A stretch of 64,000 bases of DNA from positions 10,315 to 74,314 of IMG/VR virus record IMGVR_UViG_3300010282_000006; one strand, written 5' to 3'. The number at the start of each line of letters is the position of its first letter. Position 1 is the first letter of the stretch. This DNA is from a virus. Its lineage: Duplodnaviria; Heunggongvirae; Uroviricota; Caudoviricetes. The notes beneath the pieces were generated by a model, which saw only the letters and a list, made by a program, of their open reading frames with translations, did not search any database and was not told where the DNA came from. Positions 34,652 to 54,230 of the stretch are shown here, piece after piece. A program made the translations under genes and the position numbers.

Positions 34652-35050
34652 ATGGACTCCACAATTTATATCCGCACAAAAGAGCTGTGCGATGAACGCG
34701 GAATGTCGATCACCAGACTTGAGGGCGAGCTTGGACTTGGACAATATGCGATCGGTCGGCTCAAATCCTCATCCAATCCGACGGTCGAAACGGCCATGAA
34801 GATCGCCGGATACTTCGGCGTTTCCGTCGATTATCTGATCGGAGCCTCCGACATTCGCACCAAGGCAGACGATCTGGTGCATGACAACGACTTTGTATCG
34901 CTCCAGCGCGCACGCGAGAGGATGACGGATGTTGACCGAGACCGCATGATGGCGATGCTCCAAATTGCTTTTAACAAAGCGTTCGGAGATGAGACCGCCA
35001 GCGTTGAGCAGTATATCCTGAATGTCGAACGTGAGGAGAAGAAGGAGTGA
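34652..35050 (+). CDS. XRE-family HTH transcriptional regulator (ImmR-like)
   Basis: 132 aa; N-terminal HTH_XRE; paired with ImmA-like peptidase. Confidence 0.8.
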   Translation: MDSTIYIRTKELCDERGMSITRLEGELGLGQYAIGRLKSSSNPTVETAMKIAGYFGVSVDYLIGASDIRTKADDLVHDNDFVSLQRARERMTDVDRDRMMAMLQIAFNKAFGDETASVEQYILNVEREEKKE

Positions 35051-35051
35051 C

Positions 35052-35759
35052 ATGATCCGATACGGGAAAATCCACGATGAGGTGTTGAAGCTCTACTGCA
35101 ACATGAATCCGCTGGTGTTTCCGATCCAACCGGAGGAAGCTATGCGAGCCGTTCCAAATTGCAGGATGATGACATACCGCGAGTTTTCCGCACTCAACAA
35201 CTGTTCCGTAGAGGAGACGGTGCGGCTTTGCAGCAGCAAATCAGGCTGCACGCAATATGACGTGCTCCGCAATCGCCATCTTATCCTGTGGAACGACGAT
35301 CCATCCGATAATAATGTGCTTGGTCGCCAGAGGTGGACGAAGGCGCACGAGCTGGGGCATGTGGTTTTGCGGCATCTTCCGCAAACCGCGCGTTCCAGAA
35401 GCGAACCGTCAGGATTTTATGCCGAGCACTGCAAGGAATACGAGGACGAGGCGGATCTGTTCGCGTCGATCCTCCTTTGCCCGTGGCCTCTCTTTTTCCA
35501 ACTGCACATTCATTCCGCCGCCGACGTCGCCAATGTGTTTGGCCTTTCCACAGAGGCTTCCAATGTGCGCTGGGCGGATTATCTGCGGTGGAGAAGCTGC
35601 AAACGCAATGACAAAGAGCTGCGCTGGGCTGGATGGATGGAAGGACTGTATCAGCTTCGTAAAAAATCCGGTATGGTGGAGCACCCACCGTTCCGCTACG
35701 GAGGAAGAAGATACAGCGGCATCGACGTATGGCCGGAAAAGGCTTCAGGCGATCCCTAA
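35052..35759 (+). CDS. ImmA/IrrE-family zinc metallopeptidase (HEXXH)
   Basis: HELGHVVLRH motif; start ATG overlapping immR stop. Confidence 0.75.
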   Translation: MIRYGKIHDEVLKLYCNMNPLVFPIQPEEAMRAVPNCRMMTYREFSALNNCSVEETVRLCSSKSGCTQYDVLRNRHLILWNDDPSDNNVLGRQRWTKAHELGHVVLRHLPQTARSRSEPSGFYAEHCKEYEDEADLFASILLCPWPLFFQLHIHSAADVANVFGLSTEASNVRWADYLRWRSCKRNDKELRWAGWMEGLYQLRKKSGMVEHPPFRYGGRRYSGIDVWPEKASGDP

Positions 35760-39245: not shown

Positions 39246-39329
39246 AATGTTTCCTCCTTCGATTTTGCGCTTCTTACGCCCATATAAGAGAAAAAGGAGC
39301 GCAAGTGCTAACCTGCGCTCCAAATTTTC

Positions 39330-41273
39330 TTACGCGGTGAGGAGAGGCATAGTCGATGCGGGGGAGATGATGTAGTTCTGCGGCGCGCGCATGACCTCCT
39401 CGTACTCCTCGCGGCCTTGGAACTCATCGACCACGGCGCGGGATTCCGCGTCCATATCGTTGTAGTGCTTCTTTCCATAATCCGGCGGGAGCCACTGGCG
39501 GCTGCGCGCTGCAAAGATGTTGAGGCGGTCAATCAGGCGCTTCGCGTCGTCGTCAAACTTGATGTGGCAGGTTCCCTTCTTGTAGAACGTGGCGGTGAAG
39601 TATTTGAAGTTCATCGTCGTGCGCTGGCACTGTTCCGCAACATGCGCCACGGTGTAGGGGTCGATGGAGGAGCCGGTTTCGCCGCGATCCAGATAGTTCA
39701 AAGCGCGTTCGATGTCCGCGATTTTGCCGGAGAACTCGCGCGCTTCCAATTTCTTCTTGCCGTCATATTTCGTGTAGAATCCGTTGATGGGGAGAATGAC
39801 CTTCATACCGACCTTGTGCGCCTTATTCGTCGCCCACCCACTATAGTAGTGGATGTTCTTGGCGCATTCCGGATACCATGCGTGTTCGGCGGACAGCTCA
39901 TCGAAGAGCTTGTAGATCGCATCCTCCACGCCACGCGAGAGACGCGCGGAGATTTCCAGCATGACCTGCTGAATGTTGTAACGCGAGAAGTCGTAGTCCT
40001 TCATCTCGCTGATTTTGTTGTAATACTCATTATGGAGATCGGAGGTCATCTTTTCCGTCAGTTCGCGGCGGGAAAGCAGCAGATTCCAATACCTTGAGCG
40101 CAAACCGCGCAGATAGGAGTTGATCGTGTCGCTCGTCGCATGGTCGCACTTGTGGTCGTTCACGGAGAGCTGGATGAGCGGCTGGCTGTAAGTATCGGAG
40201 CCGTTCATAATGTACGGCGCAAGCGCGTTATACTCGCGCATGAGAGCGACGCCGGCCTTTGCCTCCATGTTGTAGCCGGAAACAAGCTGATCCATCCAGT
40301 CACCGGCGACCAGATCGGTGACTCCTGCGCTGCGTTCCTCCTCCATCTCAGCGGCGCGTTTGAGACCTTCCAGAATGTTCGACTTACGTTCCGGCTCCGG
40401 AATCCTCAGATAGACGATTGCGACCTCGACGTCGCTCTGACGCTCGGCATGTGAGAAAGCACCGGAAACAAACTCAATCTTGGCCTCGTAACGGGCGAGT
40501 TGCTCCTGCAGCACCTTCCGTCGCTGCGTGTACGGGTTGCGGATGGTCTCTGCATTGAGCAGAGATACGATTTGTCCGCCCGCGTCCTTCTGCATGGAGA
40601 TCGCCTTGAGTAGGTGTTCGTCTCCATTGGAAAACGGCGGATTCATCAGGATCACGTCGTAGTGCTTCATGGTGAAGTAGGTGAGAAAGTCGTCCGACAC
40701 GACACGATAGCCCTTGCCTTTGAGGATCATCTGAAGATTGGCGTCGCGTTCGATGCAGTCCACTCGTTCCATAAAGAAATCGTCCCGATAGTTCCCGTGC
40801 TTGTGGTTGAAGCACTTGAGCGCACAGGAAATCAAGTCGCCCTTTCCGGCGGACGGTTCCAACATTGTATCCGCGTACCGCCAGTCGATCAGATTGACCA
40901 TGCGACCGGCAAGCGCCGTCGGTGTCGGAAAAAACTCTGCATCAGGGGAGGCTGGAAGTGCTCGGACATCCGCGTGCAGCACTTCTGCTCTGTGCTCTGC
41001 ATACCAGTCAGCGAAAATTCTCTTGCCCTCTGCGACGGTTTTGCAGCGACCGATGGGGTTTGTGCGAAAATAGTTGCCGGTGCGCTCGGTGTAGTATTCC
41101 ACATCCATCGGCTTATCCTTATTCCAATGCTCGACCGCAGGCGTGCCGTCCATATAGAAGATCCCGCGAATCACGCCGACCGGCTGCGCGTCCTTGTGGA
41201 TGATGACGCTGCGCTGATAGGCCGGTTTCTCCCATCTGGTACAGCGCTCGGTTTTTTCGGTGTAGTAAAACAT
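39330..41273 (-). CDS. N6-adenine DNA methyltransferase, gamma-class (FPTP motif X, EPSAGKG motif I, NPPF motif IV) with ~400-aa C-terminal domain of unknown function
   Basis: 648 aa after trimming to RBS-preceded MFYYTEK. Confidence 0.75.
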   Translation of the reverse strand: MFYYTEKTERCTRWEKPAYQRSVIIHKDAQPVGVIRGIFYMDGTPAVEHWNKDKPMDVEYYTERTGNYFRTNPIGRCKTVAEGKRIFADWYAEHRAEVLHADVRALPASPDAEFFPTPTALAGRMVNLIDWRYADTMLEPSAGKGDLISCALKCFNHKHGNYRDDFFMERVDCIERDANLQMILKGKGYRVVSDDFLTYFTMKHYDVILMNPPFSNGDEHLLKAISMQKDAGGQIVSLLNAETIRNPYTQRRKVLQEQLARYEAKIEFVSGAFSHAERQSDVEVAIVYLRIPEPERKSNILEGLKRAAEMEEERSAGVTDLVAGDWMDQLVSGYNMEAKAGVALMREYNALAPYIMNGSDTYSQPLIQLSVNDHKCDHATSDTINSYLRGLRSRYWNLLLSRRELTEKMTSDLHNEYYNKISEMKDYDFSRYNIQQVMLEISARLSRGVEDAIYKLFDELSAEHAWYPECAKNIHYYSGWATNKAHKVGMKVILPINGFYTKYDGKKKLEAREFSGKIADIERALNYLDRGETGSSIDPYTVAHVAEQCQRTTMNFKYFTATFYKKGTCHIKFDDDAKRLIDRLNIFAARSRQWLPPDYGKKHYNDMDAESRAVVDEFQGREEYEEVMRAPQNYIISPASTMPLLTA

Positions 41274-41552
41274 TCCGTTCCTCCTTTTCAAATTTGCTGC
41301 TTGCACTCTTACCAGAGAACGATTTGTGAATTTGCTAACTGAACAAAAAAAGACGCCGGATTGCTCCGGCGTCTCACAATTTACAGCAGCTCTACACAGG
41401 TCAGATAGTCATATTCGTCTCCATCAACGGATACGGTGTCGCCGCTCTCAAAGAGGTTTTGCAGCCACTCGTCGTATGCCTCCGGGCTTCCGGCGTTCCA
41501 GCGCTTTTCGTCCAGCCACTCACGGAGCGCGCGGACGCTGGAGAACGTGTAG

Positions 41553-41891
41553 TTAAACACAGCCGTCAGCCTCCGTCATCTTGTGGTAGGTGTGCTCCTG
41601 CGGCTCGTCGTCAAACGTGACGTGCAGCGTACAGCCGTGCATATTCGAGCCGAACCAGTTGTTGAGAAACAGCGTCGCAACATTGACCAGATTGCGCCGC
41701 GCGTAACGGTTGTCGAGAAGCTGCGCAAGATCGGGTCGTCCGTCGAACTTGACGCTGACATACTCGCCGCTTCCATAATGCGGCTTGTTGGGATCGGGGT
41801 CGAGTCGGGTGAAGGTGAGCTTTTGGGTGAAGCTCTTGCCATCGCAGACGCCGGAAACCTCGGCGACGATCATACGCGGATTCTTTTCCAT
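41553..41891 (-). CDS. hypothetical protein
   Basis: 112 aa. Confidence 0.4.
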   Translation of the reverse strand: MEKNPRMIVAEVSGVCDGKSFTQKLTFTRLDPDPNKPHYGSGEYVSVKFDGRPDLAQLLDNRYARRNLVNVATLFLNNWFGSNMHGCTLHVTFDDEPQEHTYHKMTEADGCV

Positions 41892-41906
41892 ATTGCGCTC
41901 CTTTCG

Positions 41907-42539
41907 TTAGTTGGCAAGCACCAAGATCGAAGAGTCAAGAGTCAAAAACGGGCGAACGCCGCTGCTGCAGCCGCAGCCATACCAGTTCAGAATGCCATCG
42001 GAGTTGACGAAGCAGACGAGGCGAGCGTAACCGTTACTAGGCGTGGATGCGGGCGTGATTGTCCACCACCAGCTTTCATAGCTGCTGTTCAGTCCGAGCG
42101 TCTTGTGGTACTTCGCATACTCGGCGGCGGTGAGCAGGCTGACGGAATCCGCACACTTCCCATAGTCATCGAGGCCATCCAGCGACGTCAAATCACGCTC
42201 CATCGAGATAATGTTCTCGACGCCGACGATTGCTGAGAGCTTCCGGAAATACTCGTCGTTCAGCTTGTCGCGGATGGGGGATTCCCTCCAGTCGGAGCAG
42301 TCGCCGAACTCCTCGCCGCTGTACGGGAAGCCCTCGGAGATGACGCGCGTGCCGTTCTCGGTCTGTTCCAGCACGATGAACGTCTCGTCGCCGATGGAGA
42401 AGGTCTCGCCGGGTGAGAGGGTGGAAAGCGGCACCTTGCGCTCTTCAAGCAGCGGCGCGAGCGCTGCGGCATCCGACACCTCGATGATGAGCTTGTTGCC
42501 CTCGACAGTCACGACGCTCTTGTCAAATTCCAGTTTCAT
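41907..42539 (-). CDS. DGR target protein 2 (remote), paralog of target 1
   Basis: 210 aa; C-terminal ...WWWTITPASTPSNGYARLVCFVNSDGILNWYGCGCSSGVRPF encoded by VR2. Confidence 0.8.
   Translation of the reverse strand: MKLEFDKSVVTVEGNKLIIEVSDAAALAPLLEERKVPLSTLSPGETFSIGDETFIVLEQTENGTRVISEGFPYSGEEFGDCSDWRESPIRDKLNDEYFRKLSAIVGVENIISMERDLTSLDGLDDYGKCADSVSLLTAAEYAKYHKTLGLNSSYESWWWTITPASTPSNGYARLVCFVNSDGILNWYGCGCSSGVRPFLTLDSSILVLAN
41947..42026 (-). repeat. DGR variable region VR2
   Basis: 12 mismatches to TR over 80 nt, all at TR adenines. Confidence 0.8.
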
Positions 42540-42622
42540 GTAATGTTGTCCTCCTTTTCTGTCGTTGTGTTGTTACATGAGAAGAGCGGGCGGCATTGCT
42601 AACCGCCCGCTCCGTTTTCCCG

Positions 42623-43558
42623 TTACACCTTGGCAGCGAGCAGCTCCGCCATCTTGTCCATCATGGCGTGGCCGTCCATGATCCTGCCCCAGTTGTTCTC
42701 GCGGTAGTTCGCCGTCTGACGGCGCGGCGCGTTGTGGGATACCATATCGCTCATGGCGTTGATCGCACCCCACGCCGTTCCACGGAACTTGATGAGATCG
42801 GGCGCGAACCAGCAGACCATGTACTCGTCCTTGATCGCCTTGACGTTGTTCTTCTCACGGTCGCTCGCGTCCTCCTTGAGCGGGAACATCTCAGAGAGAA
42901 TCTTCTGAATCTCATCCTCGCTGACGTTCGTGTTGGCGAGCTGATCGGCGTAGACGCCGAGCCGCTCCATATACTTGCCGGCCATGTCGAGGCAGCGATG
43001 CGCCTCCGCGAGCTTCATCTGAAGGTCGCCGGTGTGACGCGCCGCCCACGTCCGCTTTGCGCCGTGCAGGGCAAGGTTGAGCGTGTTGTTGCAGACCACG
43101 CGAATCGGCGTCATGCAGACGCGAATCGCTCCGCCGCCGTCGTGGGAGTTGGTGAAGCACAGGTACGGCTCCGTCTTGTCGCCGACGATCTCCGTGTCGG
43201 GGAGCTTTGCCAGCAGCCAGATCTTCCGGCCTCCGCTCAGGCTGCCCGCCGTCTCATAGCGGACGTCGCCGCCGATGAGATTGTCCGTGAACGCGAAGGC
43301 GTCCGCATTCTGACAGACCTTGTAGCGGTCGGAAACGACGCCCAAGACCGTGCCGTCCGAGGAGCGGACGTTCGCCTTGAAGCCCGGAATCTTGCTGCCG
43401 CCGCAGACCTGCATCTCCTTCTGATTGACATTCCAGTCGAGACCGGCCAGCCTGAGCGCGTCCGCGCTCGTCGGGGCCTCGGCGACCTCCGTGCCGAGAC
43501 CGTGCCACGGCTTCTCACGAACGTACATCATGGTTTCCACATTAGCAGACATTTTCAA
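42623..43558 (-). CDS. hypothetical protein (possibly DUF932-type phage/plasmid protein; recollection only)
   Basis: 311 aa. Confidence 0.4.
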   Translation of the reverse strand: MKMSANVETMMYVREKPWHGLGTEVAEAPTSADALRLAGLDWNVNQKEMQVCGGSKIPGFKANVRSSDGTVLGVVSDRYKVCQNADAFAFTDNLIGGDVRYETAGSLSGGRKIWLLAKLPDTEIVGDKTEPYLCFTNSHDGGGAIRVCMTPIRVVCNNTLNLALHGAKRTWAARHTGDLQMKLAEAHRCLDMAGKYMERLGVYADQLANTNVSEDEIQKILSEMFPLKEDASDREKNNVKAIKDEYMVCWFAPDLIKFRGTAWGAINAMSDMVSHNAPRRQTANYRENNWGRIMDGHAMMDKMAELLAAKV

Positions 43559-43628
43559 GTCCTCCTTATATTTTGTTTGTTGTTGGTTTGTTGCTTACAC
43601 TCTTACAAGAGAACGGATGTGGGATTTG

Positions 43629-43898
43629 CTAACCGAGTGTTGATTTTTTCTCGTCCGGCATATCAACGCTTTCCGCGATGACCTCTTCCCAGCTCGTGAT
43701 GATCTGGTTCCAGTGCTCGATTGCCTTCTCCCGCGTGGGACTGCCGCGCAGATTGAAGCGGCCTTCGTCGCAGCGAGAACACACAACGCGCCACGCCGTC
43801 ATTTTCCCTTTGCCGAGAAATCCGAATTTGAGCGATATGAACGATTCCAAACGCGGCGCAGCGCCACAATAACAGCGCTTCATATCAATCTGCCCCAT
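43629..43898 (-). CDS. Lar-family restriction-alleviation-like zinc-finger protein
   Basis: CYCG...CSRCDEG...EKAIEHWN pattern. Confidence 0.45.
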   Translation of the reverse strand: MGQIDMKRCYCGAAPRLESFISLKFGFLGKGKMTAWRVVCSRCDEGRFNLRGSPTREKAIEHWNQIITSWEEVIAESVDMPDEKKSTLG

Positions 43899-43901
43899 CG
43901 C

Positions 43902-44147
43902 TTACTCATCCCACAGAGAATCCCGATAAAGGAAGATCGCCGTCAGGCTCATCTCGACGTCGGACGCCGCTCCGGTTTCGTCGGTTTCGCCGTTGACATT
44001 TTCAATCACGACGGTTCCGTTATCGCGGTCGATGCTTTTTACCGTTCCTGAGTTGATGCCGCCGCCTTTGGTGTCAGAGAAAAGAATGTAATCCCCAACA
44101 GTAAGCAAATTGATTGCCTCCGCCTGATGCTCATACGGATAAACCAT
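43902..44147 (-). CDS. hypothetical protein
   Basis: 81 aa. Confidence 0.35.
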   Translation of the reverse strand: MVYPYEHQAEAINLLTVGDYILFSDTKGGGINSGTVKSIDRDNGTVVIENVNGETDETGAASDVEMSLTAIFLYRDSLWDE

Positions 44148-44150
44148 TGT

Positions 44151-44582
44151 TCAGTCCTCCCTGCAAAGTTCTTCGACCTCTGCGCGCTTCCAGCCGTTTT
44201 CGTCGCAGACCTGCCAGTCATCTTCCGTGAAGTCGGCCAGTCCGACGCTGCTCTCATAGTCCATGATGGCATAGGGAAGTCCCTCGTCACGCCACATCCA
44301 GTTTAGCTCGCCATAGGCGTTGAAGTAATTCTCCTTCGCCTGCGCGATACGGTTGCGGAGCGTGAACGCGGTGTCCAAGACAATGCGCTGCACCGTCCAG
44401 TCCGCTCCAAGCGTCGCCGTACCTCTCCGGTCGAACTCGTCGCGAACTTCGACGGTGTAAATCGGGTTCCCTGCTCCGTCCGTCAGGTTTTGCTTCATGT
44501 CTGCGGTGTTGAATTTGTAGAGTCTTCCGTCGTGCGAAAAGAGCACTTCGAGATCGTTGATTCCTTTTGTGATTTCCGTCAT
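44151..44582 (-). CDS. hypothetical protein
   Basis: 143 aa. Confidence 0.4.
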   Translation of the reverse strand: MTEITKGINDLEVLFSHDGRLYKFNTADMKQNLTDGAGNPIYTVEVRDEFDRRGTATLGADWTVQRIVLDTAFTLRNRIAQAKENYFNAYGELNWMWRDEGLPYAIMDYESSVGLADFTEDDWQVCDENGWKRAEVEELCRED

Positions 44583-44627
44583 TTGATGTCACCTCCTGTT
44601 GATATATGAGACGTTTTCTGTGATTTG

Positions 44628-45077
44628 CTAACCTCTCTCGCGCGTCTTCCAGATGTTTTCCACGGAGAAGCTGTAACGGATGAAGTCGTCCACCAGACTG
44701 ACGACCACAAAGTCCGCGAGTTTCAGCGCTTCCGCCAGAAGTCTCGCCTCGGCCTTGTTCATCGTCGTGATCGCCTTGACGTCCAGCCGGATTGTGGCAT
44801 TCCGTTCCTCGCGCACAGGCTCGCTCTCCGTTATCTGATGCGCTTCGGCACAGACAGACATCAAATCCGTTACGGCGTCCTTGAGCGCGGCGTACCGGCG
44901 CAGCTTGTCCGTATCGACGTCCTTGCCGCAAAAATTCTCGTTGAGATCGTAAAGAACGCCGATTTCCTTCGACGTCAACTCGTTAATGGGCTTGCGGCGA
45001 AGCTCCTGCTCATAGGCAAGCTCCGCCTCGGCCTGTTCCGCCTCCCGTTCCGCGCGATATTTAATAAAATCTACCAT
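44628..45077 (-). CDS. hypothetical protein
   Basis: 149 aa. Confidence 0.4.
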   Translation of the reverse strand: MVDFIKYRAEREAEQAEAELAYEQELRRKPINELTSKEIGVLYDLNENFCGKDVDTDKLRRYAALKDAVTDLMSVCAEAHQITESEPVREERNATIRLDVKAITTMNKAEARLLAEALKLADFVVVSLVDDFIRYSFSVENIWKTRERG

Positions 45078-45141
45078 TTTGCCTCCTTATTCCACATCCC
45101 ACTGACAGATATAGTATCGCGTTGGATAAGCTGATACCTCC

Positions 45142-45597
45142 TCACCAAATTTTCTCCCATGCCGGATCGCTGGCGATTGCGTTGATTTCGCGATCTTGCC
45201 GTGCGACGTCATCCAGCTCTCCTTCGTCTGGAAAAGCCGACACATCCAGATCGTAAACATCGCATCCGACGCGCTCGCCGTCCGTATAGACGCTTTGCAC
45301 CATGCCGCCTTCGACGCAAATGGCAACAGAGACGCAGGGCAATTCGATTTCGCACTCCTCGATCATCCAACCCTTTTCATCTCCGTAATCCTTGATTTTC
45401 GCCACACCCGTATCTTCCAGCCCATAACAGTTGTGGTCGTCCGTCTGTTCGCTCGTATCGAAATTCCACAGCCGCAGCGTCTCCTCGTAGTCGGCGCGCA
45501 GCGCCTCACGCGCGGCTTCCTTGGTTGTGAACGATTTGCAGGATGCAAGAATCTCGCATTCCACGCAGCCGGCACAAATCAGATTGTAGATTTTCAT
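45142..45597 (-). CDS. hypothetical acidic Cys-containing protein
   Basis: 151 aa. Confidence 0.4.
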   Translation of the reverse strand: MKIYNLICAGCVECEILASCKSFTTKEAAREALRADYEETLRLWNFDTSEQTDDHNCYGLEDTGVAKIKDYGDEKGWMIEECEIELPCVSVAICVEGGMVQSVYTDGERVGCDVYDLDVSAFPDEGELDDVARQDREINAIASDPAWEKIW

Positions 45598-45860
45598 GCT
45601 GATACCTCCTTAACAATTTCAAATCTTGGATGATAGAGCGTTCCGATATTGTTGACGTAGTATTTCTTCCGATCGAATACGACGTATTGGCGGAATCCTT
45701 TATCCATGATACTGCACGCTTTTTCCTTTGTGCCGTCAGAAACAAGCAGCTTCCCGTATGGCATGACGCGGCTGTTTCCAAACGTCGGTATCGTATAGGA
45801 AAGAATCTCCAACACTTTCGGCAGATCGGGCTTGTGAAGCCTCACGTTTCTCACCTCCAC
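45594..45860 (-). CDS. hypothetical protein (start uncertain, GTG)
   Basis: 88 aa. Confidence 0.3.
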   Translation of the reverse strand: MEVRNVRLHKPDLPKVLEILSYTIPTFGNSRVMPYGKLLVSDGTKEKACSIMDKGFRQYVVFDRKKYYVNNIGTLYHPRFEIVKEVSA

Positions 45861-45901
45861 GGATATAAGAGAACGATTCGCCGATTTGCTAACCGCTTAA
45901 T

Positions 45902-45930
45902 AAAAAATCCCGCCTCTCGGCGGGATTTGT
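45902..45930 (-). terminator. intrinsic terminator (hairpin ATCCCGCC/GGCGGGAT followed by U-run on minus strand)
   Basis: read from sequence. Confidence 0.5.
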
Positions 45931-45946
45931 CAAAATGCTGTCGATT

Positions 45947-46531
45947 TTACTTGTTGAAGTTCTCGTTGAAGGTGCCGGAGTAGGCCATGACGTCGTTCCA
46001 GTCGTCGTATGTAACCTTTTCACGCTGCCCGTCGCACACGAAAACCGTGTTGGGGCGCGGCAGGCTTCCGTCTCCGGCGTTTGCGCTGCAACCGTAGCAA
46101 AACCACTTTGCGCAATTCTCGCGCGGGAAGTAGACCTCGCGGGCATAGTACAGATCGTCCAGCAGCCCACGGTAAATCTCGCGGCCGGTTCCGTTCTCGG
46201 TCTTGACGAAGCGAACGGGAATGACACGCTCAGGATTGCGGTGCGGATTGTTGTGCCAGTCGCTCTGCGAGACTTCGACCTTGAAGTCGCCCAACATCGG
46301 GACGATAACGGCGTGATCGGCCACATACTGAACGCCGAGGCGTTTCACGGTCTCGCGCTCCATAAAAACAACGCCGCTTGTGCCGGTGCAATCCGTTGCC
46401 GTCACCTTGACGCGCTTTGAAAAGTCGATGTTGAATCCGTATTTGATAAACGGCTGAATATCCTCCTGCGTCGGCTCGGAAAAACGAACCGTCACATCGG
46501 TATCGCGGTGGGAAATGATCGTCTGTTCCAT
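45947..46531 (-). CDS. hypothetical protein (start trimmed)
   Basis: 195 aa. Confidence 0.4.
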   Translation of the reverse strand: MEQTIISHRDTDVTVRFSEPTQEDIQPFIKYGFNIDFSKRVKVTATDCTGTSGVVFMERETVKRLGVQYVADHAVIVPMLGDFKVEVSQSDWHNNPHRNPERVIPVRFVKTENGTGREIYRGLLDDLYYAREVYFPRENCAKWFCYGCSANAGDGSLPRPNTVFVCDGQREKVTYDDWNDVMAYSGTFNENFNK

Positions 46532-46541
46532 GTTGTCCTCC

Positions 46542-47027
46542 TTATCTGTACCAGAACTCACCTTTGAGCGCCATGTCCTTCGGATAGACGGGATGGACTT
46601 CGCCATTTGCGAACTCGATGCGCTCCTCATCCAAAACATCCAGATCGCCGTCCACGCCGGACAGCTCGATTTCCAAGACCTCCTTCGTCTTCATATTGAC
46701 CTTGCACTTGCTTTCTGCGGAGATTTCGCCGTCGTTCCACAGACTGATGAATGTTGCATCCACCAGCTCATCCGCCAGCGGCGGAACAGAGAAGACCGGC
46801 GCGTCCTGCGTGGCGGAGATCGTCGCCGTGGAGCTGATTGCCATGCGGTAAATCTGCCCGACCACCTCGTCCGGAAGATCGGCCTTGTAGAATTTCACGC
46901 TGCGGTCAGATGCAATGTGCGCGACGTTCTCATAGTCGCCGTGCTCATATTTGAGACGGTTCCAGACAGACAGGCCATTCCCAAAATGACCGAAGCCCAG
47001 AGAAAAATCCTTGCTTGTGCGTTCCAT
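46542..47027 (-). CDS. hypothetical protein (start trimmed)
   Basis: 161 aa. Confidence 0.4.
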   Translation of the reverse strand: MERTSKDFSLGFGHFGNGLSVWNRLKYEHGDYENVAHIASDRSVKFYKADLPDEVVGQIYRMAISSTATISATQDAPVFSVPPLADELVDATFISLWNDGEISAESKCKVNMKTKEVLEIELSGVDGDLDVLDEERIEFANGEVHPVYPKDMALKGEFWYR

Positions 47028-47052
47028 GCTGTTATCCTCCCTTCGCCTCTGC

Positions 47053-47562
47053 TTACCTGTTTTCCACGCGGCGATAATGGGCTTCTCCGTTGGAAAACGT
47101 GCCGACAACATGGTATTCCTCGAAGCCGTATTCCTGAGCCAGCTTGCGAAGCGCGCGGGTGATCTTGCGCTGCTCGCTCGCGTACTTCCGCCGTGCCGCG
47201 CTCCGGCAAAGGTCGAAGTAGTAGCGGCAATCCTCGTTGTCGTAGTCGTCGCCGTCCAGATCGTGCTCCGTCTCGACGTAGAACTGAGCGCCAGTCCAGT
47301 AACCGCCGCGCAGATCGGTCTTGTGGAACAGCAGGTCACGATTTAACTCCTCCATCCGTTCGCCGACATCATGGAAGATTTCGTCTCGGAGAAAATCATC
47401 GAAAGATGTGTCGTCTTCCAGATCGTCGCTTCCGCAGACGGGGCAGACGTCGGTATCGTCGTAGATGATCGCGCCGCAGTCGGCGCAGCGCTTGACCTCC
47501 GTGTAGAAGTCACGGGCGAAAAGAGGAAAATCCCTCATGGTGCAGAAATTCGGGCAGCTCAT
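47053..47562 (-). CDS. hypothetical zinc-ribbon protein
   Basis: 169 aa, CADCG..CPVCG. Confidence 0.4.
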   Translation of the reverse strand: MSCPNFCTMRDFPLFARDFYTEVKRCADCGAIIYDDTDVCPVCGSDDLEDDTSFDDFLRDEIFHDVGERMEELNRDLLFHKTDLRGGYWTGAQFYVETEHDLDGDDYDNEDCRYYFDLCRSAARRKYASEQRKITRALRKLAQEYGFEEYHVVGTFSNGEAHYRRVENR

Positions 47563-47651
47563 AGCTCACAGCCTCCGTTTTCAGATTGACCTTGCGGCCA
47601 TCTATACAAGAGAAAGAAAACGCCGGCTGCTAACCGGCGCTTCCAAAATAT

Positions 47652-47993
47652 TTATGCCTCGCGGAGCTTCTTTTGCAGCGCTTCGATGCTGTCGATACAG
47701 TCCTGATCTGCTTCGACAATATCCATGTCGTCGCCCGCCCATTTGATTTCGCTCTCCCGCGCTTCGGAGAGGGCGTTCAGCGCGTCCATAATCAGCTCGT
47801 AATCGCTGCTGTCCAGCTCGACCAGTGTGTTCTCCCGATGCGTTTTGCTGACGGGTCCATCCTCGATCTCATAGACCAGTTGCTCCGTTTCGCTGTCGCT
47901 CAAGAGTACCGCCGTGCGTCCATCGTTGATGATCTCGCGTGCGGTGATTTGCAGTTCGTACTGCCTGCCGTTCCATGTGATGTTTTTGTGCAT
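47652..47993 (-). CDS. hypothetical protein
   Basis: 113 aa. Confidence 0.4.
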   Translation of the reverse strand: MHKNITWNGRQYELQITAREIINDGRTAVLLSDSETEQLVYEIEDGPVSKTHRENTLVELDSSDYELIMDALNALSEARESEIKWAGDDMDIVEADQDCIDSIEALQKKLREA

Positions 47994-48040
47994 GGTGTTA
48001 CCTCCTTTTCACATATACCAGAGAAGAAAAGAGACCGGTG

Positions 48041-48283
48041 CTAACCGGTCTCTGAAAAATTCTCGTTGCCTGCGTCATGCCCCAGCTCGTAGACCTCATA
48101 CGCCGCGCGTTCCAGCCGGTCGATCGTGTTGGTCGCATACGGCTCCGCCTCTTTCAGTGCATCCGCCTCGGCCGTCAGCACCTCGTTGACAAAGGCGAAC
48201 GCCTCCTCGACGTCGCTGTCCAGCACCAGTAGCGTGCTGTGTTTTTTGACGATCTTGTTAAACTGCTCCTTGGAAAGAACCAT
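48041..48283 (-). CDS. hypothetical protein (start trimmed)
   Basis: 80 aa. Confidence 0.35.
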   Translation of the reverse strand: MVLSKEQFNKIVKKHSTLLVLDSDVEEAFAFVNEVLTAEADALKEAEPYATNTIDRLERAAYEVYELGHDAGNENFSETG

Positions 48284-48296
48284 ATTGTCCTCCTTT

Positions 48297-48926
48297 TCAC
48301 ACGTTGATGATTCCGTCTTTGATAACGCCCTCGGTGCATCCGTCTTCCTCCGTGATGACCGGCGGACGGTCGAAGACCGCTTGGAAGCGGCACTCGCCGC
48401 CGTTGTTGTACGCGCAGGCCGTTGTTCCGCAATCCTGCGGCTCATCCTCGCCGCTCAACTTGATCTCGTCCTTGTTCCATAGGATTCGCGAACAAGAGAC
48501 AGACTGGATGCCTCCGGCGTTCCCGCGCTTGACATGGCAGTCGATGATACGGCTATACGCCTCCGCCAGACTGTTCGCCTCCACGGTCATGCCGCGCGCC
48601 TCGCCGTTTGCATAGTTGACAATCGCGACGAATCTGTCGGGCGCGTATTCCTCCTTAAACTCCACGCGGCTGAGACCATCTACCACATCGAACCCGCAAT
48701 GCGGGCAGGCCGTGAAGCTCTGGCCGTAGATTTTCTCGTCGTGAAGGGAAGAGGCAAGAAACATCTCACCGCAGGCTTCGCAGCGAATGAGCTTGCCGCT
48801 GTCCTCCATCTCTCCGGCGCAGGTGTCGCAGACCAGACGCGCCGTGGGAAGTCCGACGTCGATCTCGCGCAGCTCGTCCTCGTCGACGTTCCAGCCGCAC
48901 TCGGTACAGATTTTCTTTTTACACAT
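48297..48926 (-). CDS. hypothetical Cys-rich protein
   Basis: 209 aa. Confidence 0.4.
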   Translation of the reverse strand: MCKKKICTECGWNVDEDELREIDVGLPTARLVCDTCAGEMEDSGKLIRCEACGEMFLASSLHDEKIYGQSFTACPHCGFDVVDGLSRVEFKEEYAPDRFVAIVNYANGEARGMTVEANSLAEAYSRIIDCHVKRGNAGGIQSVSCSRILWNKDEIKLSGEDEPQDCGTTACAYNNGGECRFQAVFDRPPVITEEDGCTEGVIKDGIINV

Positions 48927-49031
48927 GATGAAGTCCTCCTTTCAGGCTTCTGTCTCTATATCAGAACTATTCCACGATTTGCTAACCGCTAAATAAAAAA
49001 AGCGGCGGAGTGATCCGCCGCTCCTGTTCCG

Positions 49032-49472
49032 CTATCCGTAAACCAGCTCTCCGAAAAGCGCATACTGGACGATCATGTCCGCCATCTCCGCGTCGATCTC
49101 GCCCGTGTCAATCTTGCCGGTTTTCAGATCGACTGCACCGTACACATCGCCGCCGTTCTGAATCCACAGCTTGATGCCGGACAGCAGCTTTTCCAGATTG
49201 AGAAGCCAGCCCTCGCCGTCGTCCTCGTCCTCTGCGTCGAAAAAGCGGATAGACTTCATGGTGGACGGGCGTGCGCTGTCGCAGTCCAGCAGTATCTTCG
49301 CCGCCGTGGTCTCCACCGGCTCATCCTCCGGTGCATTTTCAAACGCGCTCGTCGTGTTGTCCAGACACGCCCAATAGCCGATTCCGCCTTCCAGCGCGGC
49401 GCTGAGAATGTCCTTGACGTCCTCGTCCGTCAGCGTGACGGTCGCCTCGATTTTGATTTTATATTCGTTCAT
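49032..49472 (-). CDS. hypothetical protein (start trimmed)
   Basis: 146 aa. Confidence 0.4.
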   Translation of the reverse strand: MNEYKIKIEATVTLTDEDVKDILSAALEGGIGYWACLDNTTSAFENAPEDEPVETTAAKILLDCDSARPSTMKSIRFFDAEDEDDGEGWLLNLEKLLSGIKLWIQNGGDVYGAVDLKTGKIDTGEIDAEMADMIVQYALFGELVYG

Positions 49473-49609
49473 GGGAAACCTCCTCGCTTTAAGTACATAT
49501 ATTAGAGAAGCATGTGTATATTTGCTAACCGTTCCGATTTTGAATATGCAAAAAAATAGAGCGGGGAAGACCGACCACCACGACGGCCTTCCCCTAAAAA
49601 AGAGATACC

Positions 49610-50044
49610 TTATTTTTCGTGCCAGAAGACAGGCGCAATGTAGTATCCGTCGTGATACAGCGCACCGCTCCATCCGTTCAGCCTGTCAAACAAAAACTCA
49701 AAAAGAACATGCCACACACCGCAATCCGTTTGAACAGTGAATAAACGGAAATCCGTGTCGATCTCGACAGACAACACCTCGCGCGTCTCCGTTCCATCCG
49801 AAATGAGCACGGGCACGCCCTTGGCCTTGTGAAGTGCGATTTCGCGGAAAATCTGATGGACGTCGCTTGTCGCATCCGCTCCCTCTTTGCGGAAATGCTC
49901 CGCCAGATAGACGGCGCTGAGGGCGTGTTCCTTGTTGTCATCGTCCGCCGTGATGATTCCGCCGTCCTCCATGTAGTCCAGCACGGGGTAGAATTTTCCG
50001 GCGGTGAAATACTCGCCGTCTGTGATTGCCTGATAGTATTGCAT
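49610..50044 (-). CDS. hypothetical protein (start trimmed)
   Basis: 144 aa. Confidence 0.4.
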   Translation of the reverse strand: MQYYQAITDGEYFTAGKFYPVLDYMEDGGIITADDDNKEHALSAVYLAEHFRKEGADATSDVHQIFREIALHKAKGVPVLISDGTETREVLSVEIDTDFRLFTVQTDCGVWHVLFEFLFDRLNGWSGALYHDGYYIAPVFWHEK

Positions 50045-50113
50045 GATCGTCAACCCCTTCCATACATACAAGAGAAACCGGCGTGATTTTGCTAACCACG
50101 CCGGTAAATTTTT

Positions 50114-50317
50114 TCAGTTGATCGCAATGCGCTTGTCGCCGTGTTCCAGCGCGTTTTTCAGCTTCTCGCCGATGATCGTCAACTGCTCATAGCGCAGGTG
50201 AGACAGTCCGCGCTCGACCTGATTGGACGCGCGGCGGCTGTTGTTGTCGTAGTGTTGGCCGGTCATCTTCACGACCTCCGCGAGCCATTGCAGCTCTGCC
50301 TTGCTCAGATGTTCCAT
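50114..50317 (-). CDS. hypothetical protein
   Basis: 67 aa. Confidence 0.35.
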   Translation of the reverse strand: MEHLSKAELQWLAEVVKMTGQHYDNNSRRASNQVERGLSHLRYEQLTIIGEKLKNALEHGDKRIAIN

Positions 50318-50319
50318 TT

Positions 50320-50619
50320 TCAGACCTCCATGCCTCTCGCAAATTTCTCCTGGTCGATGATGCAGGTGATCGCGCTCATGGCGTCCATGTACTGCATCGA
50401 CTTGTCGCGCTCGCCCAGATGATCGCAGCGGTCGCTCATCTGATTATAGATTATGACCACCATGTCGCGGACGTTGTTCAGCTCGATAGGCGTTCTGCTT
50501 TCCAGTTCCAGAATGCGCCTGATCGTCTCCGCCTCCTCAGCATTCACGATGCCGCGCTGTGCGGGCGTATAGGCGTTGTTCAACTCAAGGATGGATTGAA
50601 AATCTGTTTTTGTCGTCAT
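50320..50619 (-). CDS. hypothetical protein
   Basis: 99 aa. Confidence 0.4.
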   Translation of the reverse strand: MTTKTDFQSILELNNAYTPAQRGIVNAEEAETIRRILELESRTPIELNNVRDMVVIIYNQMSDRCDHLGERDKSMQYMDAMSAITCIIDQEKFARGMEV

Positions 50620-50674
50620 ATCGAAGCACCTCCCACAGATACTTGAGATTGTTTTCCGGTCTTGCTAACCACTG

Positions 50675-50914
50675 TTACTGAAAAATCGGCCAGTCCGATT
50701 CGCCTGAGAAATCAAACGCTCCTTCTGCGTCCTTGCGCGTCCACTCTTCAACCAAAATCACCTCGGATTCGCGCAGCTTTTGCATATCCTCGGCAACAAA
50801 TGCTGCAGCCTCGTCCAATGTTGGTTCCCGCAGCGCCTTGATTATCATGGAATATCCGCTACTGAAACAGACCTCGAAGTATTTGATTTTCTTATCCATA
50901 TCGCTATCCTCCAA
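50675..50914 (-). CDS. hypothetical protein
   Basis: 79 aa. Confidence 0.35.
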   Translation of the reverse strand: MEDSDMDKKIKYFEVCFSSGYSMIIKALREPTLDEAAAFVAEDMQKLRESEVILVEEWTRKDAEGAFDFSGESDWPIFQ

Positions 50915-51247
50915 TCAATATTCACCCGGCCACCGTTCCACGATACCGGGATGCCAGCGGTAAAGTCCGATTGCCTCGCACTGTGCGTCGAAGTTGTTCG
51001 GAAAGTTGACCGCGCTCGGCACGACGGTCGTTCCGTCCGGCAGCTCTACCGGCTTGCTATATCCACCGAGGTCGTGGATGCACTCGTCCAGCGTGTCGAA
51101 AAGACGGTCAACCAGCCGCGCTCCGTTGTAGATCGCCACGCAGCTACGCAGCGGGCTCGTGCTCAGGTTCCGAACGCCGCGCCGCTCGTCGTACTCTCGG
51201 ACGACCATGCCTCGTGCAGTAAATTCAGGATAGTATTTCATGTTCAT
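50915..51247 (-). CDS. hypothetical protein (start trimmed)
   Basis: 110 aa. Confidence 0.4.
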   Translation of the reverse strand: MNMKYYPEFTARGMVVREYDERRGVRNLSTSPLRSCVAIYNGARLVDRLFDTLDECIHDLGGYSKPVELPDGTTVVPSAVNFPNNFDAQCEAIGLYRWHPGIVERWPGEY

Positions 51248-51282
51248 CGCCTCCATCCATACATGAGAACGGTTCCGCGATT

Positions 51283-51316
51283 TGCTAACCGCTGAAAAAA
51301 CTTTTTTGCGCGTCGC
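51283..51316 (-). promoter_or_regulatory. upstream motif 2 (minus-strand sense GGTTAGCAAA-N16-18-TCAT/TTAT-ATAT...GGAGG-ATG), representative copy; sigma70-like -35 TTAGCA / -10 TATAT-type
   Basis: one of 22 copies between 38.0 and 56.7 kb, each in front of a small minus-strand gene. Confidence 0.5.
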
Positions 51317-51380
51317 AGTTGGCTTTCCAATGCCTCCGTGCAAAAAGAAGAACGGCGGGCGATTTGCCCGCCGTGTTCCG

Positions 51381-51812
51381 TTACGCCTGCACGCAGCGGC
51401 GAAATCCGTCGCGCTCGCGCTCTCCCATGTGCCACTCCGCCACGAAATCCCAGCCACGCTGATACTGCGTATAGCGGCGGAAGCTCCGCACGATTGCCAG
51501 CACCGCATTGGGGTCAGCGCCGACCGTTTTGCAAACCAGCCGCAACGTGTCCCATGCACCGTCGCTCTCCGCATCTCTCTTCCAGTAGATGCCAGATTCC
51601 TTGTCCGTCATTGTCCTACCGGCGTACAGGCGGGCAATCTCCAAAAAGCTCCGGCGCGCCTCGATGTACGCCTCAGCAGCCTCCATAACCGCCGCGACGT
51701 CGTACTTGATCGGCTCGTGCTTCGCAGCGCCTTGTTCATTACTCAGATACCCTCCGCCAAATGCTACACAGTTATCCATCACGCGCGACCATACTCCCCA
51801 ACTTGCCGCCAT
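51381..51812 (-). CDS. hypothetical protein (start trimmed)
   Basis: 143 aa. Confidence 0.4.
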   Translation of the reverse strand: MAASWGVWSRVMDNCVAFGGGYLSNEQGAAKHEPIKYDVAAVMEAAEAYIEARRSFLEIARLYAGRTMTDKESGIYWKRDAESDGAWDTLRLVCKTVGADPNAVLAIVRSFRRYTQYQRGWDFVAEWHMGERERDGFRRCVQA

Positions 51813-51945
51813 TGTTTTGTACCTCCGTTCTGGATTTTTGGATTTCCTGTTGATACAAGAGAGTATTTTCCGCATTTGCTAACCTGCTCCCAAAAAAATT
51901 GCGGCGGACAGAAATGTCCGCCGCTCGTCTGTTCCGTCTGTTCCG

Positions 51946-52758
51946 TCAATAGTCCTCGCCGAGTCCGGCGTGGTATCTCCTGCGCGCCTCGAAGTATGCG
52001 CGGCGCTGGACGTCGTTGAATCCAAGGTCGTCGAAGTAGCACGCCAGATTCTCCTGTTCCCCACGCCAGCGGACGCGGCCAAATGCGCCGAGCGTATCAT
52101 AATCCGCCTGCCAGTTGATGTGATACTCGTGATTCGCCATCTCCCGGACGAAAGCGTCCACCCAATACTCGAAATTCTCGCTGTTTCCATCCTTCGCCGC
52201 CACCAGCGCCGCATAGAGCTGATCCTGATGGTCGCGGAAATCCTTGTCGGCGTAGTAGCAGAAGGAAACCTCGCTGTAATAGGGATAATTCCCCTTCAGC
52301 CGGTCAAAGACGCTCTGCTCCTTGATGTGCGTGACCGTCGCTCCGCTGTAGTCGATTCCAAAAATGGACAGGTGATCGACGCGCAGCGGGTAGAGGTCGC
52401 GCAGAAAACGCTCACGGCGCTGAAATTCGTCGTACTCCGCCAGCGGCGCGGTCAGCTCCTCCTCCGTGAAAAGCGTCTGGCGCAGCTTTTCCTCGTACAG
52501 CGCGCGCAGCTCCTCGTGCGTCTTCTCGTGCTGATCTTCGTCCCAGCGCGTCGGACGGTGGTGCAGCTCGTAGTCGTTCGCGTACCCGATCTGATGCCCA
52601 TTGAAAAAGACCAGCGCGCTGTATCCGAAGTGTCCGCCGAAGTCGATGAACAGGACGTCGTGCTCCTTGATGACCGTCGTGTCCTCCGCCAGCTCAAACG
52701 CGGCGTCCTCGTCCAGCGCCTCAATGTCTGTGATCGTCCAGTTTTTCGTCTGTTCCAT
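51946..52758 (-). CDS. hypothetical acidic protein
   Basis: 270 aa. Confidence 0.4.
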   Translation of the reverse strand: MEQTKNWTITDIEALDEDAAFELAEDTTVIKEHDVLFIDFGGHFGYSALVFFNGHQIGYANDYELHHRPTRWDEDQHEKTHEELRALYEEKLRQTLFTEEELTAPLAEYDEFQRRERFLRDLYPLRVDHLSIFGIDYSGATVTHIKEQSVFDRLKGNYPYYSEVSFCYYADKDFRDHQDQLYAALVAAKDGNSENFEYWVDAFVREMANHEYHINWQADYDTLGAFGRVRWRGEQENLACYFDDLGFNDVQRRAYFEARRRYHAGLGEDY

Positions 52759-52886
52759 GTTGTGCTCCCTTCCGGCCTGCGGCCTTGTTCTGTGAATACT
52801 TGAGAATGATTTTCTGTTCTGCTAACCAAACGGCTGAATTTTTCCAAAAAAAAGAGACGGACATTGCTGCCCGCCTCCGCGTTCCG

Positions 52887-53378
52887 TCACGCGCTGATCT
52901 TGTCCCGCTTGCCGTCCGTGTTGACGACCTCGCTCCCGTAATAGCCCCGGATGTCGTCCATCGAAAGGTTCCGACTGCTCCGCTTTTTGTAACCGTCGCG
53001 GTGGAAATACCACGCGCTTTTGTTGCTGCTCCACCGGAAGGACAGCGCCTTCAGCTCGTCCTTGTGCGGCTTCGTGTCGCCCGTCACCCACAGCCACGAG
53101 CCGCAGACCTCGATCGTGATTCCCTCCATGTGAATCAGCTTTTCAATGACGTCCATGAACTCCGCCGCCGTCTCCGTCGTCGCCGTGCGGCTCGTGTAAA
53201 ATTCGCCGTCCTTGTTCTGGTGGACGTCCTTGAGGCGCGCAAAGAGCTTTTCATACTCCGCGTTGATCTGCTGCATATCCACCGTGCTTCCGCCCATGTC
53301 GGGATGGTGCTTCATGGCGAGGCGCTTGTACTGCTTCTTCAGCTCTTCCAGCGTCTTCGGATTATCAAACCACTTCAT
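52887..53378 (-). CDS. J-domain (DnaJ-like) protein
   Basis: HPD tripeptide in KKQYKRLAMKHHPDMGGS near N-terminus (start trimmed). Confidence 0.65.
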   Translation of the reverse strand: MKWFDNPKTLEELKKQYKRLAMKHHPDMGGSTVDMQQINAEYEKLFARLKDVHQNKDGEFYTSRTATTETAAEFMDVIEKLIHMEGITIEVCGSWLWVTGDTKPHKDELKALSFRWSSNKSAWYFHRDGYKKRSSRNLSMDDIRGYYGSEVVNTDGKRDKISA

Positions 53379-53503
53379 CGTCGTGTCCTCCAAAAAATCA
53401 GATTTGGAATCTTCCATCCATATATGAGAACAGTTCCGGCGTTTGCTAACCGTTCCAAAAAATAAAAAATCCGGGAAGTTTCCCTCCCGGATTTTCCACC
53501 GAT

Positions 53504-53719
53504 TCAAACAGTCGGCACATAATCAAAATAGCCGATGCGCTCGAAGATTTCCAGCGCGCCGTGCGCGGCCTGTTTCGGCATGTCCGCAGCCCACATAAGC
53601 GGGAAGCGTAAATTGTCCATGTCGCAGACCTGAACGTGCGCCCTGTCCTCGTGAAAATCCGCCCTCATGCGGTACTGGCCGTATGTCTTTTCCATCGTGC
53701 AAAGCGGCGTGTTATACAT
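53504..53719 (-). CDS. hypothetical protein
   Basis: 71 aa. Confidence 0.35.
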   Translation of the reverse strand: MYNTPLCTMEKTYGQYRMRADFHEDRAHVQVCDMDNLRFPLMWAADMPKQAAHGALEIFERIGYFDYVPTV

Positions 53720-53892
53720 GGTTTCGCCCTCCGTTCCAAAAGTCGGTTTGTTCCTCCCGCTGATATATTAGAGCGTTTTCCGCGCCTGCTAACCGGTTTC
53801 AAAAAATATTTTCTTGTTCCATTTCGCGCGAAACATGAGAAGTGGCGGCGAAACAAAAAAAAGCGGCGGGATTGCTCCCGCCGCCCGTTCTG

Positions 53893-54114: not shown

Positions 54115-54230
54115 ACTGTTATATGAGAAAGAATGCAGCGCTTGCTAACCAGTCTGCAAAAAAAATCAGTCGTTCCAAAAAAAATCGAAAGAGGCGGAGC
54201 GATCAAGCTCCGCCCGTTCCGTTACAGGGA

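Follow-up and report, generated by a model that had tools for sequence, protein, structure and literature searches.

The 64-kb stretch of viral DNA described here (positions 10,315 to 74,314 of IMG/VR record IMGVR_UViG_3300010282_000006, hereafter the window) is part of a larger contig of at least 115 kb and carries a diversity-generating retroelement (DGR), the features of which all lie on the minus strand (Table 1). Its cassette is made up of a target gene (target 1) that holds a variable repeat (VR1), an avd-like accessory gene, a template repeat (TR) and a reverse transcriptase (RT) gene. A second gene (target 2), 11.7 kb from the cassette, ends in a further variable repeat (VR2) that matches the same TR. 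An earlier sequence-only reading of this DNA had proposed that one TR diversifies a second, non-adjacent and paralogous target. This proposal is supported by mismatches between VR2 and TR that fall on adenines only, by a shared 3' junction, by variation of VR2 between samples and by the concerted evolution of TR and VRs. We therefore consider it very probable that target 2 is functional and is served, at a distance, by the one DGR of this large Clostridia-type phage.

Table 1. Features of the DGR and of the surroundings of target 2, in window positions
Feature	Position	Strand	Description
DGR reverse transcriptase	28995-30161	-	388-amino-acid open reading frame; Pfam RVT_1, E 2.6e-15
Conserved RNA structure just 3' of the TR	30074-30126	-	RNAalifold, 12 homologous cassettes
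TR (template repeat)	30128-30207	-	adenine-rich, 19 adenines; between the 122-amino-acid gene and the RT reading frame
Avd-like accessory gene	30239-30607	-	122 amino acids; PHROG 3206 "Avd protein of DGR", E 1e-12
Target 1 gene	30614-31225	-	203 amino acids, DUF6273; holds VR1
VR1	30648-30727	-	3' end of the target 1 gene
Target 2 gene	41907-42539	-	210 amino acids, DUF6273; variable region at the C-terminus
VR2	41947-42026	-	3' end of the target 2 gene; residues 172-197 of the protein
3' junction CGTTCGCCCGTT	41947-41958	-	GC-rich end of homology, resembling an initiation-of-mutagenic-homing element; identical in TR, VR1 and VR2
Promoter-like motif of target 2	42573-42605	-	GGTTAGCA (42597-42604), N14, TCTC, ATGTAA (42573-42578)
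Perfect 10-bp GC hairpin GAGCGGGCGG / CCGCCCGCTC	42584-42612	-	TTAGCA box in the loop; between the stop codon of the DUF932 gene and target 2
Motif copies in a hairpin loop	39296-39321, 42584-42612, ~47620-47645, ~48030-48055, ~50080-50105	-	
Two small reading frames directly downstream of target 2	41381-41891	-	112 amino acids (41553-41891) and 59 amino acids (41381-41560)
Intrinsic-terminator-like hairpin and T run closing the target 2 unit	41350-41375	-	followed by a motif copy (41339) and a methyltransferase gene

The window holds one complete DGR cassette, with target, Avd, TR and RT, and neither a second RT, a second Avd nor a further DUF6273 gene was found in its 64 kb. The motifs LGNQCSQ and YADD, read off the translation of the RT, correspond to the [I/L]GxxxSQ and YxDD motifs by which DGR RTs are recognised. 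Because the RT open reading frame (ORF) overlaps the TR at its 5' end, the start codon of the RT is uncertain. The 122-amino-acid Avd-like protein gives, in addition to its PHROG match, a sub-threshold match to the Pfam family 23S_rRNA_IVP (E 0.09). About 10.7 kb and more than a dozen unrelated genes separate target 2 from target 1. Within the window, target 2 is therefore a non-adjacent target in the sense of Wu et al. (2018). The two targets are paralogues, as the sequence-only reading had stated, with 37% identity over 191 amino acids (E 3e-36), and both match Pfam DUF6273 and PHROG 9958. VR2 stands at the C-terminus of a scaffold of ligand-binding type, the C-type-lectin-like DUF6273 domain, which is the place where the variable region of a DGR target is expected.

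The window holds exactly three copies of the 12-mer CGTTCGCCCGTT (0.02 expected): those at 30128, 30648 and 41947 form the 3' ends of TR, VR1 and VR2, respectively, and close three copies of a repeat of about 80-119 nucleotides (nt). The identical junction that had been noticed at VR2 is thus present in all three. VR2 differs from the TR at 10 positions over 80 nt, and all 10 are TR adenines, of which 19 are available (hypergeometric P = 5.6e-8). Twelve mismatches over 80 nt, all at TR adenines, had been counted in the sequence-only reading. The adenine specificity stands and the count does not, since 12 is reached only by running 4 nt past the 5' edge of the repeat, where the two extra mismatches fall at a G and a T outside it. 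Two results had been named beforehand as refuting the assignment, a spread of the mismatches over all four bases and the absence of the shared 3' junction; neither was seen, the computed alignment placing the mismatches at adenines only and the junction being present in all three repeats. Every TR adenine lies at codon position 1 or 2 of the VR reading frame. When each adenine of the TR is made degenerate (A to N), the resulting pattern matches only TR, VR1 and VR2 in the window (0 matches expected), VR2 with no further mismatch, and no third VR was found there.

VR1 differs from the TR at 13 positions, 11 of them at adenines, one at the 5' edge of the repeat and one a G>C change at 30661. This last, non-adenine change is missing from two otherwise identical contigs (L081 and L082) and is either an ordinary point mutation or a rare misincorporation at a base other than adenine. 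VR1 and VR2, which the sequence-only reading saw to differ at many of the same codons, consistent with independent rounds of homing, differ at 10 positions, 8 of them TR-adenine sites, and separate change of the two repeats was seen in other contigs.

Comparison with public contigs shows that VR2 is actively rewritten. Contig L081 (ENA ERZ27241767:k141_41961), compared with window positions 47616-26774, differs at 14 positions over 20,843 nt, with 11 differences in VR2, all at TR-adenine sites, three in VR1 and none elsewhere. Two more contigs differ from the window in VR2 only and at adenine sites only: L079 (ERZ27241770:k141_138590), with 13 differences over 14,375 nt, and L078 (a contig of SRR5190120), with 11 over 5,231 nt. 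The TR itself is identical to that of the window in L081 and L082. The three VR2 alleles have 16 polymorphic positions, every one of which is a TR adenine (P = 3.6e-14), and 18 of the 19 TR-adenine sites are substituted in at least one VR2 allele. The exact target 2 protein is also found in a protein collection, where its 90% cluster consists of three variants; two are identical to the window protein outside residues 173-194, and the third (P0122) has a few substitutions elsewhere too. In addition, a contig of SRR5190121 starts exactly at 41958, the VR2 junction, where within-sample heterogeneity may have broken the assembly.

The closest related phages, IMGVR_UViG_3300021311_000001 and 3300021318_000003, have the same layout as the window and were the only records returned by an exact search of IMG/VR for the 3' flank of VR2. 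Their identity to the window is 81-83% for the RT, 83-84% for target 1 and 75% for target 2, and their TR shows four non-adenine, synonymous differences from that of the window. At these sites VR1 and VR2 each carry the state of their own lineage (4/4 sites in both lineages), which indicates that VR2 has been overwritten with TR information since the lineages split; the transfer presumably ran from TR to VR. The amount of change at the two repeats varies from pair to pair. The window and L081 are set apart mainly by VR2, whereas the two sister contigs are 100% identical over 20.6 kb around target 2 and show eight differences in the 11.6 kb around the cassette, all in VR1 at adenine sites. These opposite patterns argue that both sites are used, at different times, and the remote VR2 is not a weaker site than VR1.

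Target 2 appears to form a short transcription unit of its own, separate from the operon of target 1, avd, TR and RT and consisting of a promoter-like motif, target 2, two small ORFs and a terminator. The box GGTTAGCA is present in 20 copies, all on the minus strand between 39.3 and 56.7 kb (0.9 expected), and together with one AGTTAGCA copy these make up an array of 21 copies that spans 39282-56662, with examples at 39306-39313, 42597-42604, 48039-48046 and 56655-56662. Direct extraction of the copies yields a two-block motif of fixed spacing, namely an AT-rich tract in most copies, GGTTAGCA, N14 and TCTC-WWRTAT. In the extracted motif a Shine-Dalgarno (SD) sequence and start codon come 20-45 nt further downstream, and the copies of the array stand 20-60 nt ahead of a small gene, often just after a terminator. 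The copy of target 2 is located 34-66 nt upstream of its ATG, and the upstream motif that had been noted at 42595-42602 is indeed there, as part of its GGTTAGCA box. The position, strand bias and recurrence of the motif suggest a promoter function.

At five of the motif copies, that of target 2 included, a GC-rich hairpin has the TTAGCA box as its loop; its 3' arm takes up the spacer and its T tract extends into the TCTC block. We read these copies as compact overlaps of terminator and promoter. The hairpin in front of target 2 is probably a terminator-like insulator for the upstream DUF932 gene. The related phage locus L002 has 18 motif copies and keeps both the motif and the hairpin of target 2, and a compensatory change there preserves the pairing (GAACGGGCGG / CCGCCCGTTC). 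The two small ORFs downstream, taken from gene calls in the identical contigs L079 and L081, are probably co-transcribed with target 2, and the 112-amino-acid one, the one that was scanned, has no match in Pfam, PHROG or NCBIfam.

Several observations weigh against target 2 as a separately transcribed, working target with a receptor-like product, and they are set out here and in the next three paragraphs together with the explanations that they might favor. With regard to transcription, a scan for the sigma-70 consensus (TTGACA, 16-18 nt, TATAAT) found no site on the minus strand, either ahead of target 2 or at the remaining copies of the motif, and in the copy of target 2 the AT-rich tract upstream is missing and the final triplet is TAA in place of TAT. 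The claim of a promoter of its own is therefore borne out as far as the motif is strongly non-random and conserved in a relative, but not by any match to this consensus; given the misfit, recognition may depend on a sigma factor specific to the phage or on an unusual one of the host. The misfit would also suit a reading in which VR2 is a true DGR target while target 2 is read through from upstream and GGTTAGCA is no promoter; the box could then serve as an operator, act as a signal in packaging or replication or belong to a terminator. The conserved box in the hairpin loop at five copies fits such a reading, as does the weak T tract that follows the hairpin before target 2, where termination may leak. 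Yet all 21 copies are on the coding strand with the fixed two-block spacing, most have the AT-rich tract upstream, they sit before an SD sequence and start codon and often right after a terminator, and the array is conserved in a relative whose target 2 has only 75% identity. We therefore consider read-through a minority possibility, one to be taken seriously but rather unlikely, and prefer a separate target 2 unit.

With regard to the protein, target 2 consists of a small N-terminal beta domain, which has weak matches to SH3, KOW and Tudor-like folds, and a C-type-lectin/formylglycine-generating-enzyme-like domain. The AlphaFold model has a mean predicted local distance difference test (pLDDT) score of 76, and with scores below 50 the VR segment (residues 165-191) has no reliable modelled conformation. 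No tail or fibre family matched target 2, the only match of this kind being a weak one to a Hoc-like PHROG that is confined to the lectin part. No signal peptide is obvious at the N-terminus when the translation is read without a predictor, and the neighbours are DUF932, methyltransferase and LPD11 genes rather than a structural module. The label "receptor-like", as the sequence-only reading had it, reflects nothing beyond the C-type-lectin-like DUF6273 fold, and ligand binding and a receptor or adhesin role are putative. Target 2, and perhaps the whole DUF6273 pair, could instead be an intracellular hypervariable binder, expressed separately and possibly early, and not a virion receptor-binding protein; it may, for example, be a DGR-diversified counter-defence or host-takeover factor. 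Compatible with such a role are the lack of an obvious signal peptide or fibre-anchoring domain and the place of target 2 in the 21-unit promoter-marked array, near DUF932, DUF4942/Dam-like methyltransferase and LPD11 genes, a set characteristic of regions for anti-restriction or entry. In related large phages, moreover, the orthologues of target 2 adjoin an ImmA/Xre-type regulatory pair. We hold this role to be doubtful.

With regard to the homing site, the initiation-of-mutagenic-homing (IMH) element of Bordetella phage BPP-1 combines 14 bp of G/C with a further 21 bp, and a hairpin/cruciform that promotes homing comes after it. In the window, the VRs read TT(T)TG after CGTTCGCCCGTT and continue with the codons of a conserved C-terminal peptide, while the TR reads CTGGTGG. 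The junction and these VR-specific and TR-specific flanks are kept across the RT clade. The arrangement, a GC-rich element with diverging VR and TR flanks, is that of a BPP-1-type IMH; the IMH of BPP-1 is the longer of the two elements and the more purely G/C. DNA folding of the 89 nt from the junction gave no significant hairpin or cruciform downstream of either repeat (VR2, -6.5 kcal/mol, z = +1.18; VR1, z = -0.54), and a structure common to both flanks, for which the sequence-only reading had suggested a search, did not emerge: none was significant and there is no common tight GC hairpin. Both flanks hold a loose, long-loop stem, CTCTTCG...CGAAGAG, which in the window is no better than in shuffled sequence. 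In the downstream segment that had been called direct-repeat-rich, the sole repeat is a 7-nt unit present 2.3 times behind VR2; there is none behind VR1. The likeness of the two flanks is due to the conserved C-terminal peptide LDSSI, the codons for which differ synonymously, and no nucleotide element shared by the VR1 and VR2 flanks was seen beyond the junction. Common to both recipient sites are thus the TR-homologous body, CGTTCGCCCGTT and the T-rich flank, and nothing else. With 11.8 kb between VR2 and the TR and no hairpin downstream of VR2, these features appear to be sufficient for homing.

The other points that weigh against a working second target concern scope and constancy. The between-sample evidence comes from assembled public contigs and not from reads, so that heterogeneity within a population was not seen directly, and the count of one cassette covers 64 kb of a contig of at least 115 kb, a second identical TR outside the window being conceivable. 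In addition, VR2 of the sister contigs was unchanged while VR1 changed, and turnover of VR2 is therefore not constant. VR2 might accordingly be a fossil, the TR-like C-terminus of an old target 1 duplicate that is no longer rewritten and retains adenine-biased relics of past homing; the identity of VR2 in 3300021311 and 3300021318, where VR1 differs at eight sites, would agree with this, as would the missing hairpin downstream of VR2. Three VR2 alleles on DNA that is otherwise identical over 5-21 kb, with all differences at TR adenines, are hard to reconcile with a site at rest, and L081 departs from the window at more sites in VR2 than in VR1 (11 versus 3). VR2 also tracks the lineage-specific non-adenine changes of the TR, and we regard a fossil VR2 as very improbable. 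Equally improbable is that VR2 varies by homologous recombination or gene conversion with VR1 or other phage genomes and not by TR-templated retrohoming: VR1, VR2 and TR have at least 60 identical nucleotides in common, which makes exchange conceivable, and gene conversion could also give concerted evolution at non-adenine sites, but VR2 alleles hold bases at adenine sites that are missing from both VR1 and TR of the same genome (in L079, indices 6, 28, 39, 45-46, 58 and 63 differ from the TR and are not explained by VR1 bases), the 16 polymorphic sites are without exception TR adenines, no flanking marker was exchanged (0 differences outside the VRs in 20.8 kb), and conversion by VR1 would copy VR1 states, whereas VR1 and VR2 differ at 10 positions.

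Retrohoming from one TR to two targets thus remains the preferred reading, and the known DGR pathway serves as the basis for its likely steps. The TR would be transcribed, and an RT-Avd complex would copy it into cDNA, misincorporating randomly opposite adenines. The conserved RNA structure that immediately follows the TR probably belongs to the template RNA of the DGR, as the part required by RT-Avd for priming; covariation is seen in its inner hairpin (30089-30104), where five pairs are changed on both sides. At either target gene, the cDNA would then replace the homologous 80 nt of the 3' end, whereby up to 19 adenine positions could be recoded, corresponding to about 12 codons of the C-terminal surface segment of the C-type-lectin-like (DUF6273) domain. 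The outcome would be two independently varying ligand-binding proteins from a single template.

Non-adjacent targets were described in 45 of 372 DGRs by Wu et al. (2018, Nucleic Acids Research; PMC5758913), who noted "many examples" among phage-associated DGRs, nearly all less than 50 kb from the RT. As in those systems, one target here lies beside avd-TR-RT and a second one that matches the TR lies a few to tens of kb off, the remote target being recognized by A-to-N-only differences and lying outside any other DGR. Different from those targets, the activity of target 2 is evident from between-sample variation and concerted evolution, a promoter-like motif marks its place in an array of short units, and the layout is conserved across phages of 100-160 kb. 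The DGR of phage BPP-1 (mtd-avd-TR-brt) shares with the present one the adenine-specific TR-to-VR retrohoming, Avd, a GC-rich 3' element and a VR at the C-terminus of a protein with a C-type-lectin fold. BPP-1 differs in having only Mtd as a target, which is adjacent and is a trimeric protein of the tail-fibre tip with 381 amino acids and extra N-terminal domains, whereas the window has a 12-nt GC-rich junction, no significant hairpin after either VR and DUF6273 targets of 203-210 amino acids.

DUF6273 targets of DGRs have been described as well, as "tgt2" of the gut phages nd4/nd12 (PMC10743442) and in the Faecalibacterium prophages Lelie, CP11, Roos and Pioen (PMC11792537). These gut-phage proteins resemble the present targets in being small, with DUF6273 as the sole recognisable domain, a C-lectin-like fold and a C-terminal VR, and in often being paired with a second target on the same TR; the Faecalibacterium prophages have pairs of a large and a small DUF6273 target. 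In nd4/nd12 the cassette contains both targets, and the DUF6273 protein is paired with a tentaclin and not with another DUF6273 protein, whereas in the lineage of the window both are DUF6273 paralogues and one has moved 11.7 kb away. DGRs of the Treponema denticola/Legionella type (TvpA, PDB 2y3c) are chromosomal, with targets up to hundreds of kb off that are secreted or surface lipoproteins, in contrast to the phage-genome target described here, which has no obvious signal peptide. Non-adjacent phage targets, DUF6273 targets and two-target DGRs are thus already described, and the current picture of DGRs is unchanged. Mildly new are the independent turnover of both sites, the absence of a hairpin at either and the place of the remote target in a promoter-marked array of short units.

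The window offers a natural example in which one TR serves two active paralogous targets that differ in flank, in position and probably in transcription unit. Comparison of the two sites narrows the cis requirements for homing to the TR-homologous body, the 12-nt GC-rich junction and the T-rich flank, with no hairpin, and this DGR clade is a convenient system to test what a homing site needs. In addition, public assemblies alone can substitute for read-level tests of heterogeneity.

The remote position of target 2 is a conserved feature of this phage group, because stand-alone orthologues occur in other large phages together with an adenine-biased match to a TR. These orthologues, with 61-64% identity and in phages of 100-160 kb, have no RT or Avd within 10 kb, and one of them, compared with the TR of a phage from a sibling sample, shows 10 of 11 mismatches at adenines. 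An overlap between L003 and L083, sought in order to measure the distance between TR and remote VR in a 160-kb relative, was not found. Within the RT clade, most phage contigs of 35-60 kb have two adjacent VRs, and large contigs show one VR within 10 kb of the RT; in the large phages, the target next to the cassette is similar to target 1. Probably, two targets once stood in tandem and one of them, target 2, was relocated. This is suggested by a 124-kb contig (L007; IMGVR_UViG_3300045988_147703) that has, at 8290-9501 and directly upstream of avd-TR-RT, a tandem of two genes, one like target 2 (57% identity) and one like target 1 (50%).

Two side observations concern these relatives. One sister contig has an in-frame deletion of 225 nt in the RT gene (at about 11585 of L074, from 3300021318_000003, compared with 11586-11810 of L075, from 3300021311_000001), which removes residues 175-248 in window RT numbering, including the aspartate block KCDITKFF and LGNQCSQ, and represents either a dead RT or an assembly artefact; in the contig with the deletion, VR1 is less substituted relative to the TR (11 versus 19). 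Furthermore, a target 2-like protein of 61% identity (P0060; L084/L085, 10001-10636) has the same exact sequence on at least 24 contigs from different runs. Such invariance is unexpected for a hypervariable target and may reflect an inactive DGR or a single widespread clone.

The element is a large phage of Clostridia type, given its genes for a DnaE-type polymerase, primase-helicase, NrdD, ThyX, an Erf-like annealing protein and HNH endonucleases, the PHROG matches of its proteins and its relatives, which are IMG/VR contigs of 90-160 kb. The window also encodes methyltransferases, an integrase and, according to gene calls on contigs identical to the window, an ImmA/Xre-like pair. An origin from a conjugative element or plasmid was considered for the DUF932, LPD11 and methyltransferase genes and was dropped in view of the phage replication genes, PHROG matches and IMG/VR relatives. 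Near-identity searches of 50,697 deposited phage genomes with the cassette and the target 2 region gave no match. The host is likely a member of the Clostridia: relatives of target 2 with 55-62% identity are found on contigs of metagenome-assembled genomes assigned to Clostridia or Acutalibacteraceae, which narrow the host no further.

The phage is probably temperate, as indicated by the integrase at 57760-58752 and by a pair of HTH_3 (Xre-like) and Peptidase_M78 (ImmA-like) genes (34652-35759, plus strand) that is divergent from the surrounding minus-strand genes. In related large phages, the ImmA/Xre-type pair lies directly beside the target 2 orthologue. The DnaE-type polymerase is seemingly split (7553-11732, minus strand): an ORF with the PHP, NTPase and finger domains of Pol III alpha (9252-11732) is followed by an HNH endonuclease ORF (8543-9199) and then by a DNA-polymerase-like ORF (7553-8476), an order that suggests a polymerase gene interrupted by a homing endonuclease or an intein.

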